A DNA stretch of 64,000 bases from Candidatus Omnitrophota bacterium (GCA_021731625.1 JAKFXC010000062.1:4479-68478); one strand, 5' to 3'; shown: positions 17,395 through 60,738, counted from the stretch's first letter. Translations and numbers: made by a program. Notes: generated by a model not told the origin, from the sequence alone.

Positions 17395-17477
17395 TTTTTT
17401 CTTAATGCTGCATTCATTTCGGTTCACATAGAATAAAGGTCCAAGCATTTAAAATTAGTTAATTTAGGAGATGAATT

Positions 17478-17735
17478 ATGGCCGTTTTTAAGTCTATGGA
17501 CGGATCGCCTAAGGCCTTTCGCATCCTGCGTTTTTGTTATGTGGTTTTATCTTTGATTGCCGGATTGGACAAATTTTCTAATTCTTTGGTCAACTGGACC
17601 GCGTATTTGTCGCCGATCGTCAGCAGCAAGATGAATCCGTGTGCATTTATGAAGTTCGTGGGCGTCGTCGAAATCGCCTCCGGACTTTTGGCCATTGTCA
17701 ACCCCCGTAGTGCTGGTTATGTGATTGCCGCCTAG
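17478..17735 (+). CDS. DoxX-family membrane protein, interrupted by in-frame TAG at 17733-17735 (frame stays open to 17861)
   Basis: Two TM helices before the TAG. After it the frame continues LWGIILNLLTIPGYYD...LALANLARDHQHV without another stop for 41 codons, completing a typical ~127-aa DoxX. Confidence 0.5.
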   Translation: MAVFKSMDGSPKAFRILRFCYVVLSLIAGLDKFSNSLVNWTAYLSPIVSSKMNPCAFMKFVGVVEIASGLLAIVNPRSAGYVIAA

Positions 17736-17879
17736 CTTTGGGGGATCATCCTCAACCTTTTGACTATTCCCGGCTACTATGACGTCGCGGCGCGAGACTT
17801 TGCCTTGGCTCTGGGAGTGCTGGCCCTGGCCAATTTGGCCCGGGATCATCAACATGTTTAAATTGACTAAAGGGTCTAC

Positions 17880-19937: not shown

Positions 19938-19938
19938 C

Positions 19939-40223: not shown

Positions 40224-40577
40224 ATGAAAAAAGTACTCATTGTGGAGGACGAACAGAGGATCACCGACATCTATTTGCGTTTACTGGTGCCGGCGGGCTA
40301 TATTGTCCGCTGCGCCAATAATGCGCAGGCTGCCACCAGCATCTTGGTCAGGGAAAACATTGACCTGGTCTTGCTGGACATTAAGATGCCGAAAATCAAC
40401 GGCCAAAAGATATTTGAAATCATCGAAGAGTATAACCCTGACATTAAAGTCATTGTCAGCAGTGTGTATCCGGTCGAGAAGCAGAAGGAGTTGCTGCCGC
40501 AGGCGGAGAATTATTTTGACAAATCCGAAGGTCCCATGAACCTTTTGGCCAAAGTCCAGCATGCTTTGGCAGGCTGA
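40224..40577 (+). CDS. Single-domain response regulator (receiver only)
   Basis: VLIVEDE, LLDIKMP and VIVSS motifs; 117 aa. Confidence 0.75.
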   Translation: MKKVLIVEDEQRITDIYLRLLVPAGYIVRCANNAQAATSILVRENIDLVLLDIKMPKINGQKIFEIIEEYNPDIKVIVSSVYPVEKQKELLPQAENYFDKSEGPMNLLAKVQHALAG

Positions 40578-43110: not shown

Positions 43111-43465
43111 CGATGACGAAGAGCTGTGTATGGAGCTTAAAGAGATTTTAGGCGACGAGGGGTACGAGGTGCACGTGGCCATGGACGGGTTTAAGGCCAC
43201 CGCTCTTATAGAACGTGACCAATATGCCGTGATCATTTTGGACCTTAAGCTGCCGAAAATGAACGGATATCAAGTATTGGAAACCGTCAAGCGCCGGGCC
43301 CCGAACCTTAAAGTCATTGTGTTGTCCGGACGCCCGATGGGAGAAACGGCCTTAAACAACACAGCCGATCCCGAGGTGGAAAAGTCGCTGCAATTCGCCG
43401 ATGCGGTCATGAATAAGCCGGTACTCATTCCGGTATTGGTGAAAGAGATTAAGAAATACGCCTAA
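43085..43465 (+). CDS. Single-domain response regulator (GTG start)
   Basis: LLIIDDDEEL, ILDLKLP and VIVLSG motifs; 126 aa. Confidence 0.75.
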   Translation: MNKRLLIIDDDEELCMELKEILGDEGYEVHVAMDGFKATALIERDQYAVIILDLKLPKMNGYQVLETVKRRAPNLKVIVLSGRPMGETALNNTADPEVEKSLQFADAVMNKPVLIPVLVKEIKKYA

Positions 43466-43490
43466 CGAACGCAAAAATAAGGAGAATCCT

Positions 43491-43919
43491 ATGTTCACCA
43501 AAGATTTTGCCGTCGACCATCCCAGGATCATGATTGTAGATGACAATGTGGAGTTTTTAGAGGAATTGGAAGAAATCCTCTCTCAAAGCGGATACGACAC
43601 CCAGACGCTGCCGGACAGCACCAAAGCGTTGGAGCTGGCCAATGAAACCAATCCAGACCTTATCCTGCTGGATTTGAAGATGAGCCCCAAAAGCGGCTTT
43701 CAATTGGCGGACCAATTGCGGCATTCGGAGAAAATGAAGGATGTCCCGATTGTGGCCATGACGGGGTTTTTTACCGAGCAAGAGCATGTGCTCATGATGA
43801 AACTTTGCGGCATCCGGAATTTTATCCTTAAACCTTTTATGCCGCTTAATTTGATCGCCAAAATTGAATTCGCGCTGGGCCGGCGTCCTTCGAATGAATT
43901 TGACGAAGACACCACGTGA
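43491..43919 (+). CDS. Single-domain response regulator
   Basis: IMIVDDN, LLDLKMS and IVAMTG motifs; 142 aa. Confidence 0.75.
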   Translation: MFTKDFAVDHPRIMIVDDNVEFLEELEEILSQSGYDTQTLPDSTKALELANETNPDLILLDLKMSPKSGFQLADQLRHSEKMKDVPIVAMTGFFTEQEHVLMMKLCGIRNFILKPFMPLNLIAKIEFALGRRPSNEFDEDTT

Positions 43920-45930: not shown

Positions 45931-48710
45931 ATGTTAGATTATCTATATAAGAAGATGGTCAGCCTGGCGCTAGTCACCGCCTTTGTCGGCTCTTTCGTGT
46001 ATTTACCCCCATCTCAGGCCCACGCGGATGTCCTTTTAGGGCTGCCTGCCCCCGGTACTATGGTCAGCTTAAGCCCCGGCTATGCCACAGCTTTAATCAA
46101 AGGTTTAACCCTTCGTAAAGACAATCCTTTTTTGTTTGATTTCGTGGTGGACACCGGGGATAGCGGCCTCTCCGCTGAGGCTTAAAAATAGAAGGGGACC
46201 GTTTAGTCAAATATTTCTTTGCCTGTTTGACCATTCCTGAAAAAGATCTCTGGGTCAACTTAAGCCCCTATGAAAAAGATCGAATAGTCCCGGAAGCCTT
46301 AGGACAAACCGCTTTGGGCCGGGATCTACTCGCCCAAGACTATTTCCTCAAACAATTAACCGCTTCGCTGATTTATCCAGAGAAAGGCCTGGGCAAAACG
46401 TTTTGGGACCGCGTCTATGCCCAAGCCCAGCAAAAATTTGGGACTTCGCAGATTCCCGTCAATACTTTCAATAAAGTCTGGATCATGGCAGATAAAGCCA
46501 ACGTTTATGAGAGCGGTCAAACCGCCTTTGTGCTCGACGGTCATTTAAAGGTGATGCTCGAAGAGGACTACCTAGCGCTGCAGAAGAATGCCAAACCGAA
46601 ACAAAATGCCGGGACCTCTCAAATTGTCCGCGAAATCCCGGCTTCCATATCAACGGCTCATGCCCAGGAAAGCCGGGATTCCCTGCTGGCTAAAAGTATT
46701 CTGCAGGAAATCATCATCCCGGAGCTTGAGCGGGAAGTGAATACGGGTAAGAATTTTGCCACTTTGCGCCAAATTTATAATTCCCTTATCCTGGCCAGCT
46801 GGTACAAGAAGAATCTCAAGGAAGCATTACTCAATGAAGTTTACACCGATAAGAGCATGGTCAAAGGGGTGGATCTTTCTGACCCTTCTATAAAAGAAAA
46901 GATTTATGAGCAATATCTGAAAGCGTATAAGCAAGGCGTATTTAACTATATTAAGGAGGAACCCCGGGGTGACGGGCAAACTCTTCCTAAGAAGTATTTC
47001 TCCGGTGGATTTGGCGTTGCCCAGAATTTTCAGGCCACGTACCATTCTAATTCTCCTGGCAGTAGACCACTCTTAAATAGAGCCATGCAAAGCCTTTCAA
47101 AGACCTTAGCGGTGGTTGCCGTTGCGTTGGTGATGAATAGTCCGTTAGCTGTTTCGGCCGCTGGCTATGATGCGAAAACAGACACCATTATTGATTTTAG
47201 CGGGCGAGCGCACAAGGCTCCGACTTTGGATGAAATGATAGAGCGAGGTATGGATCCGAGGGATCCTCGGAGTTTCCTGCCCCCAGATTATTTTCGTGAT
47301 CTTTTTGGATTTGAAGAAATGATGCTGGCAGATCCTAAAATAAAGACGGAGGTCCTGAGAAGGATAGCGGAGGCGGTCAACCCGCGTGGGGCAATGTCCG
47401 CCGAAGAACTGGCGTATTTAACCAAATTTTCCAGCGAATTGTTGAGGAGACTGGCAGGATATGATCAGCCTCCTTCGCCGTGGTATACCGCACCAGGAGT
47501 AACTATTCCCAATGATGTCCAAGTCGACGCTCAAAAGGCAAAAAGAACGGCGGGTTTCAAAACAACCCAAGAGTGGGTGGATTATTTGGAAAACGAACTG
47601 CGCTTACCGCGGTTGATGGTTGAAGAATTGAGGGAGCTCAATGAAAAAGGCAAAGATGTTTTTGCTATCATCGATGCGTTGCCCCTGAAAGGATTCTCAC
47701 CACGGGTCGCCGATTTAGCCAGAGGGTTTCTCAAGGCGAGGTTTGCCAACGATCAAAAAACCCAGCTGCAGACGATCATGGACTTGATAAGAATACGAGA
47801 GGAAGCCCTAATTCTACGATCAGATGATCTGCTTCTGCTGGCTGTTTTTAAGGCGGGGTATTTTACCATACTCGAGACGAAGCGATTAGATCAAATAGCT
47901 GGTATTGCCGCAGAGGATGTAAGCCGCTATAACAGTGTGTTTTTTGGTCATTTGCTGGCCCAAATGATGGGGGACTCAGACCAAAAAGCGGAATTAAAGC
48001 AACGCATCAGGCAAATGTATGTGACAGCGTATGCCCGCGCATGGGCAGCCAAGCGAAACACCCTAAACGGACTATTTGCGGACAACGGTATTTACACCCG
48101 ACCCATGTTTAATTCCGCAGGCATGGACAACACCGAATTGCGGCGTATGAATGACATAGCCCAAGGCATTATCACGGCGGCGACGGCCTTAAGACTAGCC
48201 AATGGCAGTCAGGATCGCCTGGAGTCTTTAATCAGAGAATGGGACAAGGCTAAAGGCAATGTCTCATTTGCTTTCTCGAGAATTTTCCATGCCGTAGTCA
48301 TGGGACGACAAGCCGGTGATGTGCAGAATATAGATTTCCCAGGAATATTGGACACATTGAATGCTCTCCCGCCCAATAGAAGACCGGACCGTGACGATCT
48401 TCGAAGATGGGCCGAGCTTGTCCAAAAAAATAGAACTAAGCAAGAGAAGGCAATGGTGGCGCCGGACGAGGCCGATCAAGCCGTAATCACGGAGACCAGC
48501 GATGCCGTATCACCCGGCGGTATCGACTTAAAAACGGCCAACCTGGCCATGACGGTCACCAAAGACGGGAACGGCGGTGTGCAGGTGCTATTTGACCCGT
48601 TACTGCTGGAGGATCTCAGAACTCAAGGTATAAAATCTGCAAACCCCATCATTGTGGATATTAAGCTCATGAGTTCGGCGCAGATTCCCGCTCTCCTTTC
48701 TACACCATGA
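45931..48710 (+). CDS. Giant-protein family paralog 1 (~925 aa if the frameshift is repaired): signal peptide + shared N-domain + unique middle + shared C-terminal module; frameshifted at 46181-46189
   Basis: ORFs 45931..46185 and 46227..48710 are collinear with paralogs 2 and 3: ...DSGLSAEA | LKIEGDRLVKYFFACLTIPEKDLWVNLSPYEK versus LSGEALKQESLKLIKYFLAGLTVPQKDLWVNLSPYEK. One extra nucleotide in the ctt-aaaaa run would restore the frame. Confidence 0.6.
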
Positions 48711-51700
48711 GTCTACGACGCTATATTCTTATTTTGATAATCAGCACAAACTTGATGGCTCCATTGCCGGCACCGCAGGCCTCCGAACTGATTTTGCCGC
48801 AGCCGGGCAGTATGCTCACGCCTACAAAAGCATACAATTCGGTATCGGTCAAAGGCCTAACCATTGACCCTAAAAATCCACTGCGATTTAGTTTTATTGT
48901 TGAACCCGGGGATACGGGATTAAGCGGCCTGCAGCTTAAAGATGAATCCCTCAAGCTTATTAAATATTTTCTTTCGGCATTAACCATACCGGAAGACGAA
49001 ATGTGGGTCAACCTTTCGCCTTACGAAAAAAATCGCATCATTACCGATCAATTCGGATCAACTCAAATGGGCCGGGATTTATTGGCCCAAGACTACATCC
49101 TTAAACAGCTCAGCGCTTCTTTGATCTATCCGGAACATGCTTTAGGAAAGGCGTTTTGGCAAAAAGTATATTCTCAGGTTAAGGATCAATTTAGAACCAC
49201 GCAAATGCCGGTTAATATGTTCAACAAAATTTGGATCGTTCCGGACCAAGCGTCAATCTATGAGCATCAAAACAGCGCGTTTATTGTTAACTCGAGATTA
49301 AAAGTGTTAATGGAACAAGACTATCTGGCCACTCAAAAGAATGATCAGGTTATTTCAAAAGAGCCGCAGGATCGCGGGCTATCTCAAATCATACGCGATA
49401 ATATCGTGCCTGCGATCGAAAAAGAGGTCAACGAAGGGGCCCACTTTGCCAATTTACGGCAAATCTATCAAGCCATGATATTAGCGGTTTGGTATAAAAT
49501 TCGGCTCAAAGACAGCCTCTTGGGAAAGACGTATGTCAATTTGCATAAAGTCAAAGGTGTGGCACTGGCGAACACCAAAGACAATGACATGATTTATCAG
49601 AATTATCTTCGGGCTTTTAAAAAAGGAGTCTTTAACTACATCAAGGAAGAAGAGAATTTGGCAAATCACGAAATGGTTTCCAGAAAATATTTTTCCGGGG
49701 GATTTATGCCGGCTCAATTAGCCCCCATCGTAAAGCAAGGTTTAGTATTCAACCTGCCAGATAGGGCGATCCTAAGCCCAGAGGCTCAAACTGTCACCTG
49801 GGAAGCGGAGGCACTGACCTCGGACCAGGGGATGACTGGAGAATTGCAACAAAGTCTAAAAATGTCGGATCAAGATTTTCAAGTCCTGCTGGGTAGACTG
49901 GCCAAAGATAAGTACATCACCGCAAATTCGGAAGTGGATTTAGAGTTTAAAGGCCTGAAGCCGGCTTACGCCAGGCTTTATCCTGCTCACCATGACCGAA
50001 TTTCAAAGTTACTTTCCGACGGACGTTTAAAACGGCTGGAAAAAATGGAACAAGACCGCAGAGCTTCCATCAAGCAGGAGCTAGGTGATTGGACAGAGAA
50101 AGTCAATGCGGCGGTAAAGCGGAATCAGCAAACAGAAGCAACCAAAAGGGAGGCCTTGGTCCAAAAATGGACACCAACATTTAAAAGATACGGCATTTAT
50201 TATTTTTATTTATTTAAATATATGTCAGAACGTATATTCCACATGCCGTTTAGGTATGAGCTGGAAGATTTTCTCCAAGAATCTGTTGTTGCTTGCCATG
50301 GCGTTGCTGAATTGGGAAAGACAGATGACATTTCGTTTATCATAGCTGCCCAACGGCATTTTCTGCAGTTTTTCGCGGAAGAAGACAGGATACCCTACAA
50401 AACAAAAGTTGGCGTGGTTACAAAGTTGCGGGCTTTGATCGAAAATTATTCTGCCTCCAAGCTTCAAGTGGTGCCAAATAGGTACCTTGTGCCTGCGCTA
50501 CGAGCTGAGTTTCCTAAGCTCCAGCGGTATGTACGCCCCAATGACCCGTTGGAAGGGGAGGTTGAGGCGGGTCATTTCGGATTAATTCCCCTGGAGGAAA
50601 CGTCACGGGAACTATATTTGCAAGCGGCTCTACCTAGAGTCTTGGATCAAACGAAGAAAGCCAATCGTCTTGTCGCTCTGCAATTTGGCCTTGGTGATGA
50701 CATAGAAAAGAGCAATGCATGGATTGCCAAAGAGTTGGGGTATCAGTTCGAAAATAGTGTGCGCTCAAGGTCGTACGAAATCCGGGTGACATTAAGCAAG
50801 AATAAGGCCTTGCGGGACCTTACTGTTTATGATCATCAATGGGTACTGTTCAATGATACTCTAGATTTTTTGCGTTATCAAGAGCGCGCCGCACAGAGTT
50901 CCTCGCCCAAAAAAATTCCTCATGAGCCGGCATTGAATTTTGAAGACGAGCGGCGATTGATGGATTTGGTGCATTTGTGGTTTGCTGCAAGTCAGCTGCG
51001 ATTTCTGCGGGCACTGTATTTAGGAGACAATACCGATAGCTTCAACGAGGGGGTGCAACGAGAAGCTAAACGAAGGATCAATTTATTCCTCACGCTCGGT
51101 GTGTTGTCTGAATTTGGTTTGGGGGAGCAATTAATCCCCACCATTGTCCGCTTGAGCGCCGAAACCCCACTGCAGCGCATGTTTCGTCATGCGGGAGTAG
51201 AGCAATTGTTAAGAATTTCCAATGGGGACATTAATGCCGTGGTTGAATTCGTCATGCAAATGTTTCCCGAGGTATATAAGGAAGAGGATGTTCGGCGTTT
51301 AGCTCGAGGCTATTTTGATTTACCCAAGATTCCGCAAAGTCCCCATGTTGCTCCTCAACAAGTCCTTAGAATTGTTCATAACGTCATTAGTAAAATGGAA
51401 GGTGGCGAGAGTAGACGTAGATATTTGGTCAAAAGACGCTTAGTCCGTGATCTCTACTACCATTCGATCGTAAACAATACATCGCAAGCATTAGAGGGTC
51501 TTAATGCTGCTATCGGCGAAGCCGGCAGCGATCAAGAATGGCAAAATCTTTTAAAAGACACGTATGACTACTATCAACAAGCGACCGCGTTTTATCCACG
51601 CGGCTTTCAGGAGGAAACTGAGGTGGGTCAGGAGCCGATGCTGCCCGCGCAGAGATTTGGTATTTGGGAGGCAGTTTTGTCCCTATCCAATCCTCGTTTG

Positions 51701-53347
51701 GAAAGTGCGGTGCATATGAGTGAAGCCCGTATCGGCAAAACCATTATGGCGATTTTGTCCGTCTTTAATGTGCGCAAGCCGAATAGCAATGACTATGCGG
51801 TGCGGAAGGTCCTCTACACCACCACCAATAGCGCCAAATATGAGGTTTACAATGAGCTTGTGCGGCGTACGAATAAAGAGTTGGATTTGCATGTTATTGT
51901 GGTCGACCGTCAAAACGGCAATCGTGAGCAGCAAGTCGAAGAAGCCATTAAGTTAGCGGAAGATCCAACCAAAAACGTGGTGTTAATCGCCAATTATGAC
52001 GCCGTGAGATTATCACCGGAGGCATTTTCTAAATTTGCTCCTGACGCGCACATTGTTGACGAGGTGGAGTCGCTAAAAAGTGGTGATGCCAAGCGCACTC
52101 CTATCATTTTCGGTATTCCAGCGAAATATCGGGTTGCGGTCAGTGCCCGCGCCGTAGTCAATCGCTCAGAGGATGTCCATGAATTAATTTTGTGGACCCA
52201 GCACCGCGAATTCTTGCCTTGGGGAAGAAAGAAAGAAGACGCATTGCAGGAGCTTAAAGACATGTCCCAAGATCGAGTATTTGAGGTGTTAAGCAGGAAT
52301 CAGAGTCGATGGCGCCGTAGTACCGTTATGCCTGAGGTCAAAGAACCCGTATTTACCAATGAGCCTATTGAATATTCACTGGAGCAGCAACAAAGCATTC
52401 TGAAAATCAGCAGCGTGGATGAATTTGAGGATTGGCAATTAAACGAAGCGCGGGAAGACAAGGGAGACATGAACGATAGTGTTCTGACAAGGATTGATTT
52501 ACTGAGAAGAGCCAGTATTGAGCTGGGCTTGGTTCAAAAAGAAGCCTATTTCGGACAATATATGGACGCGTCCCCAAAAATTCAGCGCCTGGATGCCATC
52601 ATTGACAATGAATTCAAGAGTCAGGGAAAAGTATACGTCGAAGCAGATTTTCCCGAAGCCATTGACCGATTGGTGGCGCGTTATGCCCAAAAATACGGGC
52701 CGCGAGCAGCGGCAGGAATCCATGGTCAAACGCTCGTTAAGGACCGAGTTGATATTATTCGCCGGTTCCGCAGTGACCCGGAATTAAAAATATTGATAGG
52801 GACACCGCATACAACAGCTTCTTCCTTGAATTTGTCTCAGCTGCGAGGTAGTTCTTTCCACAATTCTTTGTTAGTGCGATTAGATTTGCCCGCTCGCAAT
52901 GTCGATGATGGCGATCGTTTGATCGATCCTTGGCAAGATAAGCAAGTCCGGGTGATCTCATTAATAGGCGTCTTTCGAAAGGATGATCTTGCCAAATACA
53001 AGCGATCCATTGATGAGCAGTTCTTCGACTTGCGGTCGGAGAAGCAACGGGTCTTCGAGCATGTTATTGATGGAAAACCCCTCGTTTCGGATGAGGAAAC
53101 GGAAGAAATTAAGGATATGGTTGAGGAGTTTATGGAGCCGTCGGAAATCGACGCTGCCATGATGGAAAAGGGTGGTATCGATTTAAATTCCAAATCCTTG
53201 AAGCTGCACATGAATGGTGATCAACCGGCTGCCTCGTTTAGGGGTACGTTCCTCCCTGCATTTGATGGTCTTTACCCGGTGCTTGTCGATATACAGCCAG
53301 CGAATACTGGTTCGAAATACCCCCCCGGATTATTTGAAAAGCATTAA
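48707..53347 (+). CDS. Giant-protein family paralog 2 (1546 aa, intact): signal peptide + shared N-domain + SNF2-like SF2 ATPase module + shared C-terminal module
   Basis: Shares the N-terminal ~330 aa with the other two paralogs. Internal SNF2 motifs: I SEARIGKTIMAI, II HIVDEVESLKS, III RVAVSARAVVNRSEDVHELILW..FLP; helicase-C-like GIHGQT..ILIGTPHTTASSLNLS and DKQVRVISLIG. Confidence 0.7.
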   Translation: MSLRRYILILIISTNLMAPLPAPQASELILPQPGSMLTPTKAYNSVSVKGLTIDPKNPLRFSFIVEPGDTGLSGLQLKDESLKLIKYFLSALTIPEDEMWVNLSPYEKNRIITDQFGSTQMGRDLLAQDYILKQLSASLIYPEHALGKAFWQKVYSQVKDQFRTTQMPVNMFNKIWIVPDQASIYEHQNSAFIVNSRLKVLMEQDYLATQKNDQVISKEPQDRGLSQIIRDNIVPAIEKEVNEGAHFANLRQIYQAMILAVWYKIRLKDSLLGKTYVNLHKVKGVALANTKDNDMIYQNYLRAFKKGVFNYIKEEENLANHEMVSRKYFSGGFMPAQLAPIVKQGLVFNLPDRAILSPEAQTVTWEAEALTSDQGMTGELQQSLKMSDQDFQVLLGRLAKDKYITANSEVDLEFKGLKPAYARLYPAHHDRISKLLSDGRLKRLEKMEQDRRASIKQELGDWTEKVNAAVKRNQQTEATKREALVQKWTPTFKRYGIYYFYLFKYMSERIFHMPFRYELEDFLQESVVACHGVAELGKTDDISFIIAAQRHFLQFFAEEDRIPYKTKVGVVTKLRALIENYSASKLQVVPNRYLVPALRAEFPKLQRYVRPNDPLEGEVEAGHFGLIPLEETSRELYLQAALPRVLDQTKKANRLVALQFGLGDDIEKSNAWIAKELGYQFENSVRSRSYEIRVTLSKNKALRDLTVYDHQWVLFNDTLDFLRYQERAAQSSSPKKIPHEPALNFEDERRLMDLVHLWFAASQLRFLRALYLGDNTDSFNEGVQREAKRRINLFLTLGVLSEFGLGEQLIPTIVRLSAETPLQRMFRHAGVEQLLRISNGDINAVVEFVMQMFPEVYKEEDVRRLARGYFDLPKIPQSPHVAPQQVLRIVHNVISKMEGGESRRRYLVKRRLVRDLYYHSIVNNTSQALEGLNAAIGEAGSDQEWQNLLKDTYDYYQQATAFYPRGFQEETEVGQEPMLPAQRFGIWEAVLSLSNPRLESAVHMSEARIGKTIMAILSVFNVRKPNSNDYAVRKVLYTTTNSAKYEVYNELVRRTNKELDLHVIVVDRQNGNREQQVEEAIKLAEDPTKNVVLIANYDAVRLSPEAFSKFAPDAHIVDEVESLKSGDAKRTPIIFGIPAKYRVAVSARAVVNRSEDVHELILWTQHREFLPWGRKKEDALQELKDMSQDRVFEVLSRNQSRWRRSTVMPEVKEPVFTNEPIEYSLEQQQSILKISSVDEFEDWQLNEAREDKGDMNDSVLTRIDLLRRASIELGLVQKEAYFGQYMDASPKIQRLDAIIDNEFKSQGKVYVEADFPEAIDRLVARYAQKYGPRAAAGIHGQTLVKDRVDIIRRFRSDPELKILIGTPHTTASSLNLSQLRGSSFHNSLLVRLDLPARNVDDGDRLIDPWQDKQVRVISLIGVFRKDDLAKYKRSIDEQFFDLRSEKQRVFEHVIDGKPLVSDEETEEIKDMVEEFMEPSEIDAAMMEKGGIDLNSKSLKLHMNGDQPAASFRGTFLPAFDGLYPVLVDIQPANTGSKYPPGLFEKH

Positions 53348-53386
53348 GAATATGTTATACTTTCATAGATTCACAGGGAAATCCTC

Positions 53387-56300
53387 ATGAACAAATCCAA
53401 AAAAACCGCATACCTTGCTTCCTTTATTATAGTTTCTTTCGTCACCAGTTTTTCGCAAACGCCGGTCTACGCCCAGGAACTGATCCTGCCGTTGCCCGGG
53501 ACCATGGTCACGGCCAGCCCTAAATTTGCGCCAGCCATTATACGCGGTATCCAGTTTAACGCCAAAAACCCCTTCCAATTTGATTTTATCATTGACCGCG
53601 GGGACGACAAGCTCTCCGGGGAGGCTTTGAAACAGGAGTCCTTGAAACTCATCAAGTATTTCCTGGCCGGCTTGACTGTGCCGCAAAAGGACTTGTGGGT
53701 CAACCTCTCGCCGTACGAAAAAGGCCGCATTGTGCCGGACGGCTTTGGCCAAACCGACATGGGCCGCGACCTGTTGGCGCAGGATTACCTTTTGAAACAA
53801 CTGACCGCGTCGCTGGTGTACCCAGAAAAAGAATTAGGCAAAAAGTTTTGGGAAAAAGTCTACGCTAGGGCCAAAGAGCAGTTCGGTTCGGCCCAAATAC
53901 CCGTTAATACCTTTAATAAGGTGTGGATCGTGCCGGACAAGGCCGTGGTGTTGGAGCGTAAAGGCGGCGTGTATGTGTCTCAAAGCCATTTGAAGGTGAT
54001 GCTGGAACAAGACTACCTGGCTTCTCAAAAAAACGTTAAGGTAGCTAGGTCCCAGAAGGGGATTACCACTGCTTCAGACAAGGCCGTGTCTTCCCAAACC
54101 ATCCGCGACATCATTCTCCCCGAGATCGAACAGGAAGTCAATGAAGGCGCCAATTTCGCCGCCTTGCGCCAGGTGTTCAATTCTCTAATTTTGGCCATCT
54201 GGTATAAAAAGAACCTCAAAGATGCGGTGCTCAATAGAGTTTATGCTAACTCCAACAAAATCAACGGCATTGATATTGAAGATAAAGACAGCAAGGAGAA
54301 AATTTACCAGCAGTACCTGCAGGCGTTTAAAAAAGGTGTGTATAGCTATATTAAGGAAGATGCTACGCCTGCGGGTCAGTCAGCCGCCAGGAAATATTTT
54401 TCCGGCGGCGTCAACGTGGAAAACTTGGTTGTGGAAACCGAAAAAGAAAACCAGGCCATGGCCCTCACCATCGCTGAACGGAGCCGCAATGGCGATCTGG
54501 CTCAAATTAGCTGGTTGACCCAGGAGGTTAAAAATCCTAGGTATAGACAAAATTACACACAGGCCCGGTATACCTTCTTAATGAGCACCAAAGGCTATCA
54601 GGAGAGCCTGGGTCGTAAATTTGCACTGCAACTGGATGCTAATCGTGGTGATGGTGTGCTCTCGTATCATCAGCAATTATTGCAAAAAGCATTTAGCCTC
54701 GACCTGAAGAAGCAGAAGGAATTCCTGGCTGCATATAAAGATTATTTTAAATATAACCGCTATGGGATGGAAAATTCATCGATCCCCCGGACCTCGAAAA
54801 ATTGGTGGGTACGGAGCCCGCATTCGGATACTACGAGGGTGAGCATTTCACTTCCTATGCGACCGATGAACTGCTGGCTGTGGATTATCTTAAGACTTTT
54901 GCCCCGGCAGATTTTGACCGCGAACTCAACTGGCTGCTCGTGGAAGTTCCCGCCTTAACGGACGAGCAGGATATGAGTTCCGAAAAGCTGCTGCAATATT
55001 TGGACGAGGCCATTAAGCGCTTGTTCTCCTTTGCAGACCTTAAGCTTCATACGGATGTCCGCTTTCAAGTAGAGCAAGACTTACGCACCTATTTTTATAA
55101 ACAGCTGCTAAATCGCAAAAGTACTTCCCAGCGTATAATCCGGTTGTCCAACACCACGTCGCGCGATGGCCAGCAATCTAACAAAGGCACAAACCTGACA
55201 GGTCTTGACCAGTGGAAACTATTGTCCTGGATTGTAAAATTTGGCAATGTATCCACGATTGAATCCTGGGGCGGGGCTGCAAATCAATCCGCGGTCTTAA
55301 AGACCAAGCGCATTTATCAAGTGCCCGGACAGGAAGAGCCGCTGAAAAATTGGGCCGAGGACCCTTTTTTTAATTTAAGAGAGCAGACAAAATTGTTGGA
55401 AGATAACCTCAAGGAAGCTTTTGGGGAAGACCTGGATCGGTTGGAGGATGATGACCGCGAAAGGATTTTCAATCGGTACAAGCGCGACTTTGACCGCAAA
55501 ATCTTATCCGAATTTGACCTTAATGCGATTCTGAAAAGATACAATCTCAGTGAACAGGTGAAGAATCGCGTCCGTAAAGTCTATGAGATTAAGCAGGAAA
55601 TGCTTTTACGCGGGACTTTTCTGGTTGCCCTGGATCAGTTTCCGGAACCGGTGGTGAAGGAATTTGTGGAGGTGGCATGGCGGAATGGAGTCGATGTTTT
55701 TCGTATTTTTGATGCCATGAACCGGATCAACGAAATCGATGGGCCGCTTAAATACGCCCGGGCCCTGGGAGCTAAAGTCCAGCCTGCCATTCATTACACC
55801 AAAGGTTTTCCTAGGGGGATTCCTAAATATGTGGAGCTAGCCAAGGAATTGGTCAGAATCAGCGGGCACGCCCTGGATAGTTTAGTGATCAAGGATGCCG
55901 CAGGCCAGTTGGAGCCGGAGGAAGCCTATAAACTGGTTAAAGCTTTGCGTCAGGCGGGCATCACTGTTCCGATTCAAATCCATACCCATGATACCAATGG
56001 TAATCGGCAATTGACGTTGTTGGAAGCTATCCGAGCCAACGGGGAAGATTATCCCATTATTGTGGATGTGTCCACCGGTGAGTTGGCCGCACCCTTGGCC
56101 CAGCCCAATGACCGCCATTTTTTAAACATTGTGCAGGGAACAAAGTGGGAGGGGACGCTCATTAAAGATGTGGATTTTGAGCAAATGGAGCAAGCGGAAT
56201 TTTTTATAAAAAGCGACATTAACCTTCACAGTCCCTCTGTGCCAATGACGACCGAAGATCGTTTACGCATCGTGAGAGCGAACATTCCCGGAGGTTTAAA

Positions 56301-57489
56301 AACGAATAATGACAATGATATCAACAATGCCTTACATATGTATGAAAAACTCATCCGTAAAGTTTTCGATATTATTTTTTGGGATCCGCGTGGGAACTTG
56401 ACCGCCAAGGGCCAGGCCTTTAGAGCTGCCTTAGTACGGCTTATGGAGGAAGAAATACCAAGGGTTCGTAAGGACATGGGCAATTTCTCATTGGTCACGC
56501 CCACCAGCGAGTGGGTGGTCAAGCAGTCGCTAAATAATGTTATAGGGTGGATTATTGCAGACCAAACGGTTTTGAACACCAGCAATCCGCAGCAGTGGCA
56601 GCTGTCCATCAAAGAAGATCTCCTCCGTAAAAACCGTAAGAGCCAATATCTGTACAGTGTTGGTTTGGCCGCTCATTTGCATGAAGATCTGCAAAATTAC
56701 CTGGTTGAGTGGACCCAGGACACGGAATTGCAGGATATGTATCCGGATATAAACACAGAGTTGCTGGCTTGGGCGTTTGATATCGAAGGCATTAATATTG
56801 AATTGGATGATCAAAATCGGTTGACTGATAGTCCGCTCGAAAAATTTCAAAATTTAAGAAAATTTTTTGAAAAAAGATTTGTGGATGTGCCTACCATCAA
56901 AGTTTTGCATAAAATGGAAAAATTACGGGAAGGCGGCGATGCGGACGCTCTAGAGAATCTGGAATCTCAAGAATTTTCTTGGGACCTGATCAATAGGATT
57001 TTAAAAAACGAAAAACCCATGAATATCATCAAAAGGCCGGAAGATTATGTCCAGAACTACCAACAGCTGCGGAATAAATATCCTCAGGTCAAGGGTTCAC
57101 CGGAAGATAAAATCTTGGCCAGAGTTTTTCCCAAGGAAGGTCAGTTTTCAAATTTAATTGAAACCAGGAGGATCTTAGAAGAGCAGATCGACCAAGCCCG
57201 CCAAAACTTGCCGGCAGATCATGAGAAGATTCGCAGTTTAGCTGCGGCTTATAAACGTGCCGGCGGTCGCAGCGGAGAGCGGCGTAGCGCAGCGAGTGCC
57301 GCCATGATCGGTGATGACAAAGACGGCGGCATCAATTTGAATCCGGATTTTTATGATCTGCAGATTAATCGCGAAGGTAAAAGAGCTATTGATTTTGCCA
57401 TGCAGGGACCTGCTTTAACTCCGCAGCAAGTCCAAGGCCTCACCCCTGTCATCCTCGGCGTCAAGATCTTGACGCATTTGGAAATTTAA
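53387..57489 (+). CDS. Giant-protein family paralog 3 (~1367 aa if the frameshift is repaired): signal peptide + shared N-domain + pyruvate-carboxylase-type carboxyltransferase TIM-barrel domain + shared C-terminal module; frameshifted in C5 tract 54784-54788
   Basis: ORFs 53387..54958 and 54802..57489. One extra C gives a continuous ...YGMENSSIPPDLEKLVGTEPAFGYYEGEHF. The internal region NGVDVFRIFDAMN...AIHYTKG...LVIKDAAGQLEPEEAYKLVKALRQAGITVPIQIHTHDTNGN...DVSTGELA aligns with the PC/OadA carboxyltransferase domain. Confidence 0.6.
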
Positions 57490-57514
57490 CCTGATTTGAT
57501 GCTATAATTCTAAA

Positions 57515-58063
57515 ATGGATTTCGAAGCGGTTTCCAAAATGGTCATGGATCAGTTTGGGAAACACCAGGTGCGGTGTGCCATTATCGGTGGTTTTGCCCT
57601 GCATGCGGCGGGGTTCCATCGGGCTACCGTCGATATTGATTTTCTTGTCCATGTTCAGGACATGCCGAAGGTTAAGGCCACTTTGGCAGCTTTAGGGTAC
57701 GACCTTAAGCATGAAAGCAAAGACGCCGCCAATTTTTGGGGTAAAATGGATACCTTGGGCAACATTGATTTCATCATTGCCCACCGCAAGTATGCTCTGG
57801 CCATGCTTGAGCGTTCTAAACCTTTTGAAATCGTCAAAGGCTGCACAGTCAATGTGATTGTCCCCGAGGATATCATTGGGTTAAAAGTCCAAGCGTTTAG
57901 CAATGATCCTGACCGCTACCGCCAAGATATAGCCGATATTTACTGGTTAATCAAGAATTACCGTGAACAATTGGATTTAAATTTACTCCGGGAATATTTC
58001 GGATTATTTAATTGTTCAGATAAGTTAGAGCAAATTTTAAAAGAGACGAACAATGCTCAGTGA
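57515..58063 (+). CDS. Minimal nucleotidyltransferase-fold protein (AbiEii/AbiGii toxin-like family)
   Basis: The IGGFALHAAGFHRATVDIDFLV motif is GG(x)...DxD of the NTase fold, as in AbiEii-type proteins. Confidence 0.55.
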   Translation: MDFEAVSKMVMDQFGKHQVRCAIIGGFALHAAGFHRATVDIDFLVHVQDMPKVKATLAALGYDLKHESKDAANFWGKMDTLGNIDFIIAHRKYALAMLERSKPFEIVKGCTVNVIVPEDIIGLKVQAFSNDPDRYRQDIADIYWLIKNYREQLDLNLLREYFGLFNCSDKLEQILKETNNAQ

Positions 58064-59199: not shown

Positions 59200-60738
59200 A
59201 TGAATGCCCCTGCAAACCATGATATTCTTAATTTCATAGGATTCTTTTTCGCCGGCTTGACAGTCAACCTTACCCCGTGCGTGTACCCCATGCTTGCGGT
59301 GACGGCGTCGCTATTTAAGCCAAAACCTGAATTGCGGGAAGACCTTCGGCATTCTTTTGCCAGGGCCCTGGCGTATTTTTTGGGCATTGTCTTTACCTAT
59401 TGCGCCCTGGGGTATTTTGCCGCTTCGACAGGTAAGTTATTCGGCAGCGCTCTGCAAAGCCAGTGGGTGCAGGGGGTTGTCGGCCTGTTCATGCTGGGTT
59501 TAGCCCTGTCTATGTTTGGCTTTTTCCACTTGCGTATTCCGGCTGGAATTCTAAGCCATCTGGGTAAATTCCGCAAAGCCGATTATCCGGGGCTGTTTGC
59601 CTCCGGGATGCTAGTCGGCGTTTTTGCGGCGCCGTGCATCGGCCCGCCGGTGCTGGCCCTGCTGGCGGCCGTGGCGGACAACGGCAATCCGCAATACGGG
59701 TTCACGGCGTTCTTGACATTTTCTTCCGGGTTGGGGTTGCCCTATTTGCTTTTGGGGACTTTTGAGAATTTGATTGTCAAATTGCCCAAAACTGGGACGT
59801 GGCTCATTTGGATGCAGCGTTTCTTTGGGGTGGTCTTGCTGGGTTTTTCTTTTTTCTATTTGTCGGTGGCGTTTGGCCCACATTCAATCAAGAAAAATAG
59901 GGACTCGATTTGGAAACCGTACAGCGTTGAAGCGGTGCAAGGGGCTTTGGCGGCGCATACGCCGGTCATCATCGACCTTTTTGCCGAATGGTGTTTGAGC
60001 TGTTATGAATTGGAAGACCAGGTGTTTGCCAAACCAGCGGTCAAGGCAGAGCTGGCCAAGGCCGTCACGTTGCGGGTGGACATGACGGACGTTAATACCC
60101 CGGAAAATCGGCAATTTGGCGAACAATATGAGATCATTGGCTTGCCGACGGTGATTTTTTTAGGGCCGGACGGCAAAGAGATTCGAGAGGCGCGGGTGGA
60201 GGGGGTCAGTTCTTTGAAGGATTTTTTGAAGTCGCTGGACATGCAGCAGAAAAGTTTTGGCGTAACCCCGGTAAAGGAGGGTCCGATGAGCGATGCCCAA
60301 TCCAACAGGGTCCGCATTTTTGATGCGGCGAGTCAAACATATAAGGTGGTGGACAAAGTCGTTAAATCCGACGAGGAGTGGAAGAAAATCTTGACCCCGG
60401 AGCAGTTGCGCGTGACCCGCGGCCACGGCACCGAGCGGGCTTTTTGCGCCCTGCCCACCAAGCACACCAAAGGCATTTACAAATGCGTGGGTTGCGGCAC
60501 CGATTTATTTTTGGTGGGTAATAAATTTGAGTCTGGCACCGGTTGGCCGAGCTTTTGGCAGCCGCTCGATGAGGCCAATGTGGGTACCCAAGTGGACAAG
60601 CAATTCGGCATGGTGCGCACGGAAGTGCATTGCGCACGGTGCAATGGGCATTTGGGGCATGTGTTTGATGACGGCCCACCGCCTACCGGAAAACGCTACT
60701 GCATCAATTCTGTGGCCTTGAAATTTGAGGAGGCATAA
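59200..60738 (+). CDS. Fusion protein: DsbD/CcdA-like transmembrane thiol-disulfide transporter + thioredoxin-like domain (WCLSC) + methionine-R-sulfoxide reductase MsrB
   Basis: CcdA-type TM region with LTPCVYPML and AAPCIGP cysteine motifs; Trx CXXC AEWCLSCYELED; MsrB RGHGTERAF...CVGCG...GWPSF...CARCNGHLGHVF. The ORF-track N-terminus (58630) overlaps the antisense sigma gene and is rejected. Confidence 0.75.
   Translation: MNAPANHDILNFIGFFFAGLTVNLTPCVYPMLAVTASLFKPKPELREDLRHSFARALAYFLGIVFTYCALGYFAASTGKLFGSALQSQWVQGVVGLFMLGLALSMFGFFHLRIPAGILSHLGKFRKADYPGLFASGMLVGVFAAPCIGPPVLALLAAVADNGNPQYGFTAFLTFSSGLGLPYLLLGTFENLIVKLPKTGTWLIWMQRFFGVVLLGFSFFYLSVAFGPHSIKKNRDSIWKPYSVEAVQGALAAHTPVIIDLFAEWCLSCYELEDQVFAKPAVKAELAKAVTLRVDMTDVNTPENRQFGEQYEIIGLPTVIFLGPDGKEIREARVEGVSSLKDFLKSLDMQQKSFGVTPVKEGPMSDAQSNRVRIFDAASQTYKVVDKVVKSDEEWKKILTPEQLRVTRGHGTERAFCALPTKHTKGIYKCVGCGTDLFLVGNKFESGTGWPSFWQPLDEANVGTQVDKQFGMVRTEVHCARCNGHLGHVFDDGPPPTGKRYCINSVALKFEEA

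Follow-up and report, generated by a model that had tools for sequence, protein, structure and literature searches.

The locus examined here raises the question of why three neighboring genes should encode proteins that share both ends and differ completely in the center. The DNA analyzed, hereafter the window, is a stretch of 64 kb from a Candidatus Omnitrophota bacterium. An earlier note on this DNA proposed a candidate new modular secreted-effector system, and likened it to polymorphic toxin and effector families. We asked how the three genes are built, how widely their shared parts occur, what the centers resemble, and which known system, if any, they fit.

Organization of the three genes

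An ORF map of the 64-kb window placed genes 1-3 consecutively and in tandem on the + strand at positions 45931-57489 (Table 1). Gene 1 runs 4 nt into gene 2 (ATGA, the gene 1 stop lying on the gene 2 ATG), and 39 nt separate gene 2 from gene 3. With this overlap and this gap the genes look co-transcribed. The earlier note had described three consecutive genes of ~925, 1546 and ~1367 aa. The order and the 1546 aa of gene 2 stood, but neither gene 1 nor gene 3 is a continuous ORF, and their ~925 and ~1367 aa result only if the frame breaks are read through. Each carries a one-base break, so gene 2 is the sole intact copy in the window as assembled. The label "giant" was overstated, since members of the family start at about 500 aa, the longest exceeding 4,900 aa.

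With one extra T, gene 1 reads gct-tta (..LSAEA-LKIEGDRLVKYF..) and is colinear with genes 2 and 3. Its detached 5' piece matches residues 20-73 of gene 2 with 44% identity over 57 aa (E 7e-9). The gene 3 break interval begins just past the last stop of the downstream frame (taa, 54754-54756), and the upstream frame becomes junk right after. No slippery heptamer was found in the interval. The 523-aa first ORF of gene 3 is identical to database protein P0026, recorded from an 84,233-bp NCBI contig; because this ORF is already on record, the break belongs to the deposited assembly.

Table 1. Features of the three genes, all on the + strand, numbered from the first nucleotide of the window.
Gene	Feature	Position	Remarks
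1	5' ORF, 84 aa	45931..46185	Signal peptide, motif and first ~45 aa of N-domain; TAA end made by frame break
1	Signal peptide, aa 1-32	45931-46026	Predicted cleavage between AHA and DV
1	LPAPGTM motif	46042-46062
1	Frame break, -1 type	46180..46183	"gcttaaaaa", one T short of gct-tta-aaa
1	Main ORF, 842 codons + stop	46182..48710	N-domain remainder, cargo, C-module
1	N-domain remainder	46182-47042
1	Cargo	47043-48509	Type not recognized
1	Hydrophobic signal-peptide-like segment LAVVAVALVMNSPLAVSAA	47106..47162	Directly past N-domain; Kyte-Doolittle 2.02
1	C-module	48510-48698
2	Intact gene, 1546 aa	48707..53347	Signal peptide to C-module in one ORF
2	Signal peptide, aa 1-25	48707-48781
2	LPQPGSM motif	48794-48814
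2	N-domain	to 49765	Ends at aa 353
2	Cargo	49766-53164
2	Divergent SF2/SNF2-like helicase region, aa 976-1379	51632..52843	Pfam, PHROG
2	C-module	53165-53305
3	First ORF, 523 aa	53387..54958	Final ~65 codons are out-of-frame text
3	Signal peptide, aa 1-29	53387-53473
3	LPLPGTM motif	53486-53506
3	N-domain	to 54454	Followed by start of cargo
3	Frame break, -1 type	54757..54770	Somewhere inside this interval
3	Second ORF	54757..57489	First start codon 54802; remaining cargo, C-module, stop
3	Carboxyltransferase TIM-barrel region	55144..56550	Pyruvate carboxylase / oxaloacetate decarboxylase alpha type
3	C-module	57319-57483

Shared ends and divergent centers

The N-domain of gene 2, used as query, found exactly two further copies within the window, and the next match had an E of 3.6. 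Identity was 51% over 336 aa with gene 3 (E 3e-115) and 50% over 286 aa with gene 1 (E 1e-90), plus the detached 5' piece. The common N-domain of ~330 aa described earlier was thus confirmed, at ~50% pairwise identity among the three genes. So were the Sec-type signal peptide followed by LPxPGxM (3/3 genes, as LP[AQL]PG[TS]M), the shared C-terminal module, which is ~55-60 aa long and ends 3/3 proteins, and the divergence of the middle parts, the three centers being unrelated to one another.

Some 40 N-domain positions do not vary among 70 sequences, and the fold of the domain was predicted to be mixed alpha/beta, not beta-helix. The C-module is a beta-rich unit of ~60 aa (GGIDLNP...GFxPVIINITPV). 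The C-modules of the three genes scored 41.8, 37.2 and 45.7 bits against the family HMM (E 2e-12 to 6e-11). The paralogs, ~50% identical, are no more similar to one another than to copies from other genomes. By this comparison the three genes are old paralogs and not a recently diversifying cassette array.

Size and architecture of the family

A word-indexed search with the N-domain returned 1,095 proteins, and an exhaustive search at least 8,418 clusters at 50% identity. The domain begins at residues ~2-30 in 150/150 matches listed. More than 579 genomic copies of the family were found, several per MAG. Within 80 other 21-kb loci and the window, 76 ORFs contained a C-module, one each and at the extreme C-terminus in 76/76; 64/76 also had the N-domain, and the other 12 were cut by a contig end or split. 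Among complete N-domain ORFs, 61-64/71 carried the C-module. The order is constant, N-domain first and C-module last, with a single copy of each per protein, and the cargo between them is 76-4515 aa long.

Judged by these searches the family is very large and phylum-wide in uncultured Omnitrophota. It appears to lack a prior description or name; a text search of two reports on Omnitrophota long proteins (10.1101/2023.11.21.568195, 10.64898/2026.06.07.730766) gave no mention of a conserved head of 330 aa, of a GGIDLNP tail or of the cysteine purge described below. The earlier note had named as a check whether the N-domain occurs with other cargos in other genomes, and hundreds of different cargos were found. 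Because the N-domain recurs with so many cargos and signal peptides are family-wide, the proposal of a modular exported family is upheld, on a far larger scale than the three genes. The two outcomes that the note had set against its own proposal were not observed: the N-domain did not fall into a known intracellular enzyme family, and the proteins were not fragments of a signal-less metabolic enzyme.

Signal peptides and cysteine content

Signal peptides were called by rule-based counts and not by a trained predictor. Across 373 family N-termini, a K/R n-region was present in 97.6% and a small-x-A site in 340/373. The +1 residue was Gln in 209 of 373, and a median of 6 residues separated the signal site from LPxPGxM. 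Genes 2 and 3 had no transmembrane helices beyond the signal peptide. A strongly hydrophobic 19-mer was found in only 12% of cargos (42/350), gene 1 included; it could be a membrane helix, which would change the topology. In gene 1 the segment LAVVAVALVMNSPLAVSAA may be a membrane helix, or else a signal peptide left over from a captured gene.

Cysteine made up 176/294,734 cargo residues (0.06%) vs 1.10% in 283 neighboring ORFs, an 18-fold depletion (Mann-Whitney p 4e-91), and 69% of cargos vs 2.8% of neighbors were cysteine-free. The window alone had 2 Cys in about 3,750 aa of family genes vs 1.04% elsewhere, and gene 2 had 1 in 1546 aa. The near-absence of cysteine extends to inserts derived from cytoplasmic enzymes. 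Asp plus Glu were enriched 1.2-1.4 fold in family proteins. Proteins that pass the outer membrane in unfolded form by type 5 secretion (T5SS) are known to be low in cysteine (PMC8151025).

Coevolution of head and tail

Mean-field DCA on 246 proteins ranked the pair N125-C8 third of all pairs, with a score of 2.40; four permutations peaked at 1.07-1.33. This pair couples the GGID[L/F] motif of the tail to the GRD[L/M]LAQDY helix of the N-domain. Its states (LL 144, MF 41, LF 33, ML 18; odds ratio 9.9) are not clade-bound, and paralogs of one MAG differ. When nearest neighbors were contrasted, the two positions changed jointly in 14/23 pairs vs 16/91 (p 8e-5). The next tail couplings in the DCA run from C9 and C10 to N97 and N99, in the same head region. 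AlphaFold2 modeling of a 500-aa, nearly cargo-less member gave a pTM of 0.79, with tail strands at pLDDT 78-96.

The strong coevolution of GGID[L/F] with the GRD[L/M]LAQDY helix is the reason for proposing a "clasp", and suggests that head and tail clasp together. One strong pair, a cluster of weak pairs and the AlphaFold confidence values are consistent with such a contact; a homotypic contact between chains would give the same signal.

Nature of the cargo

The 350 cargos formed 250 similarity groups, 217 of them singletons. Metabolic Pfam matches included PGK, PEPCK, FBPase, TIM, transaldolase, hexokinase, Glu/Ala dehydrogenases, acyl-CoA dehydrogenase and PPDK_N. Signaling and repeat matches included Response_reg, HATPase_c and HEAT/WD40/Ank/TPR, and others included HAD, macro, methyltransferases, kinases and peptidases M3/M48. 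Toxin families were absent from the Pfam matches of 117 scanned members. One fused PGK is far from canonical PGKs (~60 bits vs T. maritima PGK) and, being so divergent, is not simply a housekeeping copy.

The earlier note had seen nothing recognizable in the center of gene 1, an SNF2-type ATPase in gene 2 and a carboxyltransferase barrel in gene 3, and these assignments held, that of gene 2 for a divergent SF2/SNF2-like region with one of its two lobes above the Pfam cut-off. The gene 1 cargo had no match in Pfam, NCBIfam or PDB. In gene 2, SNF2-rel_dom matched above its Pfam cut-off (8.8e-7; 28.7 bits, cut-off 24.9) and Helicase_C fell under its own (19.3 bits, cut-off 23.5); PHROG 62 DNA helicase also matched (2.4e-18). 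ZorD and DpdE matched weakly, and a PDB sequence search at E<=1e-3 gave no match. By eye, helicase motifs I (GKT) and II (DE) are present and VI is degenerate.

The gene 3 barrel matched pyruvate carboxylase subunit B / OadA (NCBIfam PRK09282, 8e-57) and exceeded the PYC_OADA cut-off (33 bits, cut-off 27); its best NCBIfam score was 193 bits vs a full-length cut-off of 402. An insertion of ~80 aa lies past the first strand. In the alignment to OadA 2nx9 (E 6e-33) the KDxAG Lys (K178) and HxH (H207/H209) were matched and RD..QS was weakly aligned. We take the metal ligands of 2nx9 to be Asp, the carbamylated Lys and His-x-His, as in the known structure; on this alignment the metal-site Lys and HxH are retained. 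Pfam and NCBIfam gave no biotin/lipoyl domain in this cargo, and partner genes were not found nearby in the window. The cargo thus qualifies as a carboxyltransferase domain without the full make-up of a pyruvate carboxylase or decarboxylase.

What the proteins may do

The reading that we prefer, with a probability of about one half, is that genes 1-3 are old paralogs of an Omnitrophota family of Sec-exported, disulfide-free carriers that display or deliver cargo. Each begins with a signal peptide that looks cleavable, followed by a short spacer, LPxPGxM, the ~330-aa N-domain, a variable insert and the ~60-aa tail. Sec export and cleavage of the signal peptide would yield a chain without disulfides, and we infer that such a chain would be competent for movement or retention outside the cytoplasm. 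The GGID[L/F]NP tail would dock on the head at its most conserved face, where helix GRD[L/M]LAQDYxLKQ lies beside WVNLSPYE. Head and tail would then be one split domain into which the cargo is in effect inserted, and this constant clasp could anchor the protein, sort it, or be recognized by machinery whose genes lie elsewhere. The insert would be the working part, on the cell surface or passed to a host or prey cell, which would suit the host-dependent or predatory lifestyle proposed for Omnitrophota. This mechanism is drawn from sequence patterns, and the pattern points to an export or display route without prior description.

The carrier reading has a difficulty. Most recognizable cargos require ATP, NAD(P), CoA or phosphorelay partners, and we know of none of these outside a cytoplasm. 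It is therefore difficult to see how the cargo could work at an extracellular site, short of entering another cell. No secretion, anchoring, partner or immunity gene was conserved beside family genes in the 80 other loci. A bolder version, which we hold only tentatively, is that the clasp is the substrate signature of an Omnitrophota-specific export or display pathway. Cytoplasmic enzymes, together with kinases, helicases and signaling domains, would have been copied thousands of times by these nanobacteria, purged of cysteine and sent out, most plausibly into host or prey cells whose metabolism they would rewire. If true, the family would be the long-sought effector repertoire of Omnitrophota, acting much as phage auxiliary metabolic genes do.

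Could the proteins instead stay inside, as membrane-tethered scaffolds with an uncleaved or unused N-terminal segment, whose head and tail organize enzymes into a metabolon or target them to an internal compartment? Cargo types are indeed overwhelmingly cytoplasmic (PGK, TIM, PEPCK, hexokinase, response regulators, HATPase_c, SF2 helicase), and metabolic domains behind signal peptides pose the same puzzle in the Omnitrophota long-protein preprint (10.64898/2026.06.07.730766). However, the n/h/c arrangement of the N-termini is that of cleaved Sec signals, with conservation of a small-x-A site that Gln often follows, and an N-in anchor would still leave the remaining chain outside. The cysteine purge would have no rationale in cytoplasmic enzymes, given the content of neighboring cytoplasmic genes, and the fused PGK is too divergent for a plain housekeeping copy. 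We consider such scaffolds improbable. We are similarly doubtful of a surface lattice, in which identical molecules bind tail to head, forming chains or an S-layer-like coat with protruding cargos. Coevolution cannot separate contact within a chain from homotypic contact between chains, each genome holds many copies, and the proteins are cysteine-free and acidic, a composition typical of S-layer and other surface proteins. Against this, coupled states differ among paralogs of one genome, so the coupling would be kept by self-polymers only. Regular packing is hard to reconcile with cargos that are so extremely diverse and as long as 4,500 aa, and AlphaFold2 already yields confident tail strands from a single chain.

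Two further readings seem very unlikely to us. The genes might be a pseudogene graveyard or an assembly artifact without current function, as 2/3 copies in the window have frame breaks and other MAGs hold split or truncated copies (L057, L078, L080, L014, L058, L044). Yet 842 or 907 open codons persist past the breaks in genes 1 and 3, which makes these breaks either sequencing errors or very recent events. The frame of gene 2 is open throughout, the N-domain keeps its invariant positions, intact members number thousands, and about 25 other genes in the window have full-length Pfam coverage. We give equally little credence to an array of polymorphic toxins or contact-dependent effectors with swapped toxic domains. 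Tandem paralogs with signal peptides, constant ends and differing centers would fit it, and predation is suspected in the lineage (PMC10066038; 10.1101/2023.11.21.568195). But the variable part is central, no ORFs of immunity size lie between or after the genes, no TPS, PAAR, LXG or Rhs trafficking domain was detected with Pfam, toxin families are missing from the scanned members, and the paralogs are ancient. The likeness drawn in the earlier note is contradicted by these features together with the conserved C-terminus and the housekeeping-type cargo.

Comparison with known systems

Polymorphic toxins (CdiA, Rhs, MafB) also join a constant delivery part to a variable part and occur in tandem arrays. 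Their variable C-terminus is not seen here, where the conserved module occupies the final ~60 aa of 76/76 ORFs that carry it; variability is central, cargos are of housekeeping type and paralogs are ancient. The window has no cognate downstream immunity gene, and no small neighbor recurs in the 80 loci. TPS, PAAR, LXG and Rhs/YD had no Pfam or NCBIfam match in window genes.

T5SS proteins (autotransporters, TpsA) are alike in their Sec signal, conserved end module, long variable passengers, low cysteine and multi-copy families, and TpsA has a conserved ~250-aa domain directly after the signal peptide, as here. The family differs in lacking a beta-barrel, in its ~60-aa tail and alpha/beta head, and in having two conserved ends in apparent mutual contact. 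Autotransporter, TPS and ShlB/Omp85 models gave no match, and no partner transporter adjoins the genes in the 80 loci or the window.

In T9SS cargo, an N-terminal Sec signal and a small beta-rich C-terminal domain (CTD) are likewise found on hundreds of unrelated proteins of one phylum. T9SS cargo differs in having no obligatory N-terminal 330-aa domain and in carrying typical extracellular enzymes as passengers. To our knowledge T9SS occurs in Bacteroidota and relatives and not in Omnitrophota. The tails of the three window genes had no Pfam or NCBIfam match to the T9SS CTD.

LapA-like and RTX adhesins of type 1 secretion (T1SS) share a globular N-module, a long variable middle, a C-terminal signal region of ~60 aa starting with Gly-Gly, and an acidic, Cys-poor composition. 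T1SS substrates lack Sec signals, whereas the Omnitrophota family has a Sec-type signal. RTX repeats were not detected in window genes, and an ABC transporter, membrane-fusion protein or LapG-type protease was not linked to family genes in the window or the 80 loci. The window contains a TolC-like OEP gene 4 kb downstream, a pairing that does not recur in other loci.

The Omnitrophota giants ("Archaeovorins", dockerin-type) come from the same phylum and also have divergent metabolic and regulatory domains behind signal peptides (10.1101/2023.11.21.568195, 10.64898/2026.06.07.730766). Domains listed for Omnitrophota long proteins are PPDK_N, HAD, HATPase_c, HEAT, methyltransferases and phosphoglucomutase, and the giants, at 10,000-147,000 aa, hold many transmembrane helices along with domains of the C39/S8 peptidase and SecA-like kinds (10.1101/2023.11.21.568195; 10.64898/2026.06.07.730766). 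An Archaeovorin/dockerin-type protein is defined by a length >30,000 aa, numerous transmembrane helices, and the presence of C39/S8 peptidase, SecA-like or dockerin/TSP3 domains (10.1101/2023.11.21.568195). At 0.9-1.5 kaa and with none of these domains, the window genes are set apart by the published descriptions, and membership was rejected.

Cellulosomal enzymes likewise join diverse enzymes to a signal peptide and a small terminal module that mediates assembly, the dockerin. In the Omnitrophota family dockerin and cohesin models had no match, the cargo is not carbohydrate-active, and the tail seems to bind its own head and not a separate scaffoldin.

Architecture of the gene array

Three adjacent genes at 45931–57489 on the + strand, designated genes 1, 2 and 3, encode products that share an N-terminal domain of ~330 aa (the head) and a C-terminal module of ~60 aa (the tail), on either side of a centre (the cargo) that differs from member to member. 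Copies of the head were sought by tblastn within the window using residues 1–347 of gene 2, the only intact copy. Genes 1 and 3 each gave a match, that of gene 1 with a detached 5' piece, and the next best match in the window had an E value of 3.6. All three N-termini consist of a basic n-region, a hydrophobic stretch of 15–17 residues and a small-x-Ala site, followed after a few residues by LP[AQL]PG[TS]M. The C-termini run in all three from GGI[DN]L through two short strands to G[LF]xP[VI][IL], and a family tail HMM scored genes 1, 2 and 3 at 41.8, 37.2 and 45.7 bits, respectively.

The centres do not match one another. Gene 2 carries a divergent SF2/SNF2-like helicase (SNF2-rel_dom 8.8e-7, above the Pfam cut-off; PHROG 62 2.4e-18). 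Gene 3 carries a carboxyltransferase of the pyruvate carboxylase/oxaloacetate decarboxylase type (NCBIfam 8e-57; PYC_OADA above cut-off; E 6e-33 against OadA 2nx9), which retains the Lys and His-x-His aligned to the OadA metal site, lacks a biotinyl domain and falls far under full-length thresholds. Nothing recognisable was found in gene 1 using Pfam, NCBIfam and the PDB. An earlier note on this DNA had assigned the same domains and had described three adjacent genes with signal peptides, shared ends and unrelated centres; all of this stands, except that genes 1 and 3 are broken in frame.

The window copies are ~50% identical to one another versus up to 56% identical to copies in other genomes, and DNA similarity among them is confined to the most conserved motifs (60–77%). 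The array is therefore ancient, and the confinement of DNA likeness to those motifs rules out recent gene conversion. The G+C content of the three genes (46000–58000) is 45–48% versus 49–56% in the rest of the window, which may reflect a composition rich in Asp, Glu, Asn and Lys and poor in Cys and His, or a different history. The 75-nt gap between an MscS-like gene and gene 1 holds a perfect tandem repeat, TACCTGCTGA x3.2, which overlaps two weak promoter-like hexamer pairs and might bind a regulator of the array.

Features of the window discussed in the text
Feature	Position	Strand	Details
Alpha-glucan gene cluster	13542-22713 and 34980-36602
Histidine kinase and response regulators	40561-43919	+	upstream of array
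Tandem repeat	45860-45891
Gene 1, detached 5' head piece	46003-46173	+	44% over 57 aa, E 7e-9
Gene 1, frame break	46180-46183	+	gct-taa as read; extra T gives gct-tta-aaa
Gene 1, head copy	46182-47024	+	50% identity to gene 2, 286 aa, E 1e-90
Gene 1, signal-peptide-like segment in cargo	47106-47162	+
Gene 2	48707-53347	+	intact, 1546 aa
Gene 3, head copy	53414-54409	+	51% identity to gene 2, 336 aa, E 3e-115
Gene 3, frame break	between 54757 and ~54770	+	downstream frame closed up to taa at 54754-54756
AbiEii-like/nucleotidyltransferase gene	57515-58063		25 nt downstream of gene 3
DsbD-thioredoxin-MsrB fusion	59200-60738
MarR/OEP ORF	61420-63129

Both frame breaks act like one missing base. 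With a T restored, gene 1 reads LSAEA-LKIEGDRLVKYF and is colinear with the two other copies; in gene 3 the upstream frame turns into Trp/Cys-rich junk directly past the taa. Programmed -1 frameshifting was rejected in favour of mutation or assembly error: a slippery heptamer (X XXY YYZ) is absent at both sites, and the UUUAAA run by the gene 3 break lies upstream of target-frame stops. A truncated 523-aa gene 3 product is already on record from an NCBI contig of 84,233 bp, therefore this break is present in the deposited assembly. Since the ORFs past the breaks are still open for 842 (gene 1) and 907 (gene 3) codons, the breaks either arose in assembly or inactivated the genes very recently. 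Among the other genes in the window, about 25 are covered by Pfam matches over their full length. Other MAGs also hold split or truncated family copies, which fits with rapid gene birth and death in the family. Many family genes, even on long contigs, end shortly past the head or are split into two ORFs (fetched loci L014, L044 (244-1692), L057, L058, L078 and L080; database proteins P0004, P0007, P0076 and P0093); these represent either a high pseudogene load or head-only products made on purpose.

A large family with variable centres

Purpose-built head and tail HMMs were used to scan 80 loci fetched from other assemblies plus the window. In this set the head was always at the extreme N-terminus. 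The tail, with consensus GGIDLNPANLDLQIKRDGNGVPLPLDQQPLENLNIEGFVPVIINITPITNLPLLLGL, occurred once per protein and always at the extreme C-terminus, a median of 12 residues from the end. The head was also present in 64/76 tail-bearing ORFs, the other 12 being split or truncated at the edge of a contig. Inserts were 76–4,515 aa long (median 662), and arrays with two to four family copies were common.

The head has no model in Pfam, NCBIfam, PHROG or PADLOC, and a profile search found no PDB sequence relative at E<=1; the earlier note had not recognised it as any described family. A word-indexed search matched 1,095 proteins, the named ones nearly all 'hypothetical protein, Candidatus Omnitrophota/Omnitrophica'. 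When 1.84 billion representatives were searched exhaustively with the profile, the head was found in at least 8,418 clusters (50% identity), and 8,016 of these matched at E<=1e-10. Among 150 listed family proteins, 420–4,969 aa long, the head started within the first ~30 residues in all but one, where it started at residue 68. More than 579 genomic copies, several per MAG, were found by a scan of one genome per species. Roughly one third of the 80 retained loci are from TPA assemblies labelled 'uncultured Planctomycetales', a placement taken from the record label. The Omnitrophota and the phylum of the Planctomycetales both belong to the PVC group. Searching the large protein database with the tail profile recovered only fragments of 57–116 aa, 43/49 from contigs <5 kb; the candidate step seems to be bound by query length.

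None of the papers in the searched literature contains the motif string WVNLSPYE, GGIDLNP or KYFSGG, and the main Omnitrophota papers, including those on giant proteins, do not mention the family or its modules. The family is apparently undescribed so far, and the array finding is real and larger than first thought.

On a question raised by the earlier note, the head does occur with other cargo in other genomes: 350 inserts formed 250 similarity groups, 217 of them singletons. The majority have no Pfam match. Those that do have domains typical of the cytoplasm, including enzymes of carbon metabolism (phosphoglycerate kinase (PGK; 6e-101), GTP-PEPCK, class V FBPase, triosephosphate isomerase, transaldolase and hexokinase), glutamate and alanine dehydrogenases, acyl-CoA dehydrogenase, proline dehydrogenase, UDP-glucose pyrophosphorylase, PPDK_N, CofD, HAD, macro and methyltransferases. 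Signalling and peptidase domains (response-regulator receiver, HATPase_c, protein kinase, peptidases M3/M48) and HEAT, WD40, ankyrin and TPR repeats were also identified. The gene 3 cargo was found again in a 2,291-aa family member (36% identity over 906 aa). One PGK-bearing member scored only ~60 bits against T. maritima PGK, which matches the 'highly divergent domains' noted for Omnitrophota giant proteins.

The neighbourhood of the family genes in the 80 loci and the window contains no conserved partner or secretion gene. Apart from histidine kinases, the neighbours are housekeeping genes such as those for ABC-F ATPases, GMP synthase, pantothenate kinase and glutamate synthase. The commonest neighbour, histidine kinase, was found at 16/81 loci, which by our guess rather than by computation is roughly the chance level for so common a family. 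In the window, directly upstream of the array and on its strand, lie a gene for a MASE1-PAS-PAS histidine kinase and, after it, genes for two single-domain response regulators. The AbiEii-like gene (Pfam AbiEii 4e-10, PADLOC AbiEii 6e-5) has no obvious AbiEi partner. Further downstream, a single ORF joins an N-terminal MarR-type winged helix to a TolC-like outer-membrane efflux (OEP) region and is either an odd fusion or a merger of two genes by the ORF caller. The alpha-glucan cluster, comprising two alpha-amylase-family/CBM48 enzymes, a glycogen debranching enzyme (GDE_N/GDE_C), an isoamylase-like protein, a 924-aa amylase-family protein and a GH15 glucoamylase-like gene, suggests trehalose or glycogen turnover.

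Export signals and cysteine content

Export signals were examined in 373 family N-termini. Lys or Arg stood ahead of the hydrophobic stretch in 97.6%, and a small-x-Ala site was found within 16 residues ahead of LPxPGxM in 340/373. The +1 residue was Gln in 209/373, and the cleavage-type site preceded LPxPGxM by a median of 6 residues. Only 12% of inserts, that of gene 1 among them, contained any 19-mer at Kyte-Doolittle >=1.8. Single hydrophobic signal-peptide-like segments, mostly in the first ~300 cargo residues, were seen in 42/350 cargos; these could be remnants of the signal peptides of secreted proteins that were captured, which would hint at how cargo is acquired.

The strongest new observation is the Cys-poor composition of the inserts. 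They contain 176 Cys in 294,734 residues (0.06%) versus 1.10% in 283 non-family ORFs from the same loci, an 18-fold difference (p 4e-91), and 69% have no Cys at all versus 2.8% of neighbour ORFs. The purge is equal in inserts with a hydrophobic segment. Within the window, the family genes have 2 Cys in ~3,750 residues versus 1.04% Cys elsewhere. Relative to neighbour genes, inserts are also depleted in His (0.67x), Trp (0.80x), Tyr and Phe (both ~0.84x), and enriched in Glu (1.37x) and Asp (1.23x).

Low cysteine is a property of T1SS substrates and S-layer proteins. It is likewise known for proteins that must pass the outer membrane with no disulphides locking their structure (T5SS review, PMC8151025). 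Judged by composition, the loss of Cys from domains derived from cytoplasmic enzymes speaks for selection that has acted over a long time in an extracytoplasmic route, rather than for accidental fusions of recent date. Separately, the window encodes an unusual fusion protein in which a DsbD-type transmembrane thiol-disulphide transporter is joined to a thioredoxin domain and, at the C-terminus, to the methionine sulfoxide reductase MsrB (SelR), which shows that the organism keeps up periplasmic redox chemistry.

Covariation of head and tail

AlphaFold2 modelled the head alone (70 sequences) at pLDDT 77 and pTM 0.68 as a mixed alpha/beta fold with three beta-hairpins and about seven helices. 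Coevolution was analysed by mean-field DCA on 246 proteins (358 head and 64 tail columns), with four shufflings of tails among proteins as control. The pair head-125/tail-8 scored 2.40, third among all pairs, versus shuffled maxima of 1.07–1.33. Head-125 is the L/M of GRD[L/M]LAQDY and tail-8 the L/F of GGID[L/F]; their states were LL in 144 proteins, MF in 41, LF in 33 and ML in 18 (odds ratio 9.9). These states are not bound to clades and vary among paralogs within one MAG. In disjoint nearest-neighbour pairs the two positions changed jointly in 14/23 versus 16/91 (p 8e-5). Head-116 was coupled with head-125, and the next tail contacts were tail-9 and tail-10 on head-97 and head-99, beside WVNLSPYE.

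Positions 125, 129 and 133 lie on one face of a head helix, D129 and K133 being invariant. Together with the couplings, this face points to the most conserved head surface as the probable docking site of GGIDLNP. The coupling could be intramolecular, or it could arise where two identical chains meet.

Proposed model and alternatives

We propose that family proteins are exported by Sec, that the signal peptide would be cleaved ahead of Gln, and that the exported chain would remain without disulphides. Head and tail would close into a single domain, the clasp, into which the cargo would be inserted as a passenger. The clasp may be the constant part that machinery encoded at other loci uses for anchoring, sorting or recognition, and the cargo would work at the surface or within another cell. 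We put the probability of this proposal as a whole at roughly one half. The architecture, signal-peptide pattern, Cys purge and coupled pair are observed, while the proposal infers from them cleavage, final location, clasp geometry and any delivery to hosts. The main difficulty is that domains dependent on ATP, NAD or a phosphorelay make little sense outside the cytoplasm, which pushes the interpretation either to delivery into another cell or to scaffolds inside the cell. In the latter, rival reading the proteins would be membrane-tethered scaffolds in the cell's own cytoplasm; the Cys purge and the conserved cleavage site speak against it.

Readings as a defence system or as phage genes were rejected. 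PADLOC gave only weak helicase matches for gene 2 (ZorD, DpdE), PHROGs gave only a generic helicase, and the head was found on only 3 of 2.9 million viral contigs.

The Omnitrophota, a widespread group of ultra-small bacteria that are uncultured, are suspected of living off other cells. The family ranks among the largest unannotated protein families one could hope for, comprising at least 8,400 clusters (50% identity) and occurring several times per genome. Three of its signatures are clear and can be tested: a signal peptide whose cleavage context is fixed, a head and tail split from each other, and near-total Cys avoidance in domains that come from cytoplasmic enzymes. The family offers a sequence handle for exported proteins in any Omnitrophota genome. 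It may also offer a new carrier scaffold that tolerates inserts of 76 to >4,500 residues. Were delivery of cargo into hosts true, the family would be a new class of metabolic effectors.

Comparison with known systems

The analogy with polymorphic toxins drawn in the earlier note proved wrong, as no immunity-sized ORFs, known trafficking domains or toxin families are present. The family shares a general logic with polymorphic toxin systems and with T5SS, T9SS and T1SS substrates, but the defining features of those systems are absent from it. It is also set apart from the Omnitrophota giant proteins described so far. With these it shares the puzzle of metabolic enzymes behind signal peptides, although the family proteins are smaller, and the puzzle is thereby recast in small, tractable proteins.
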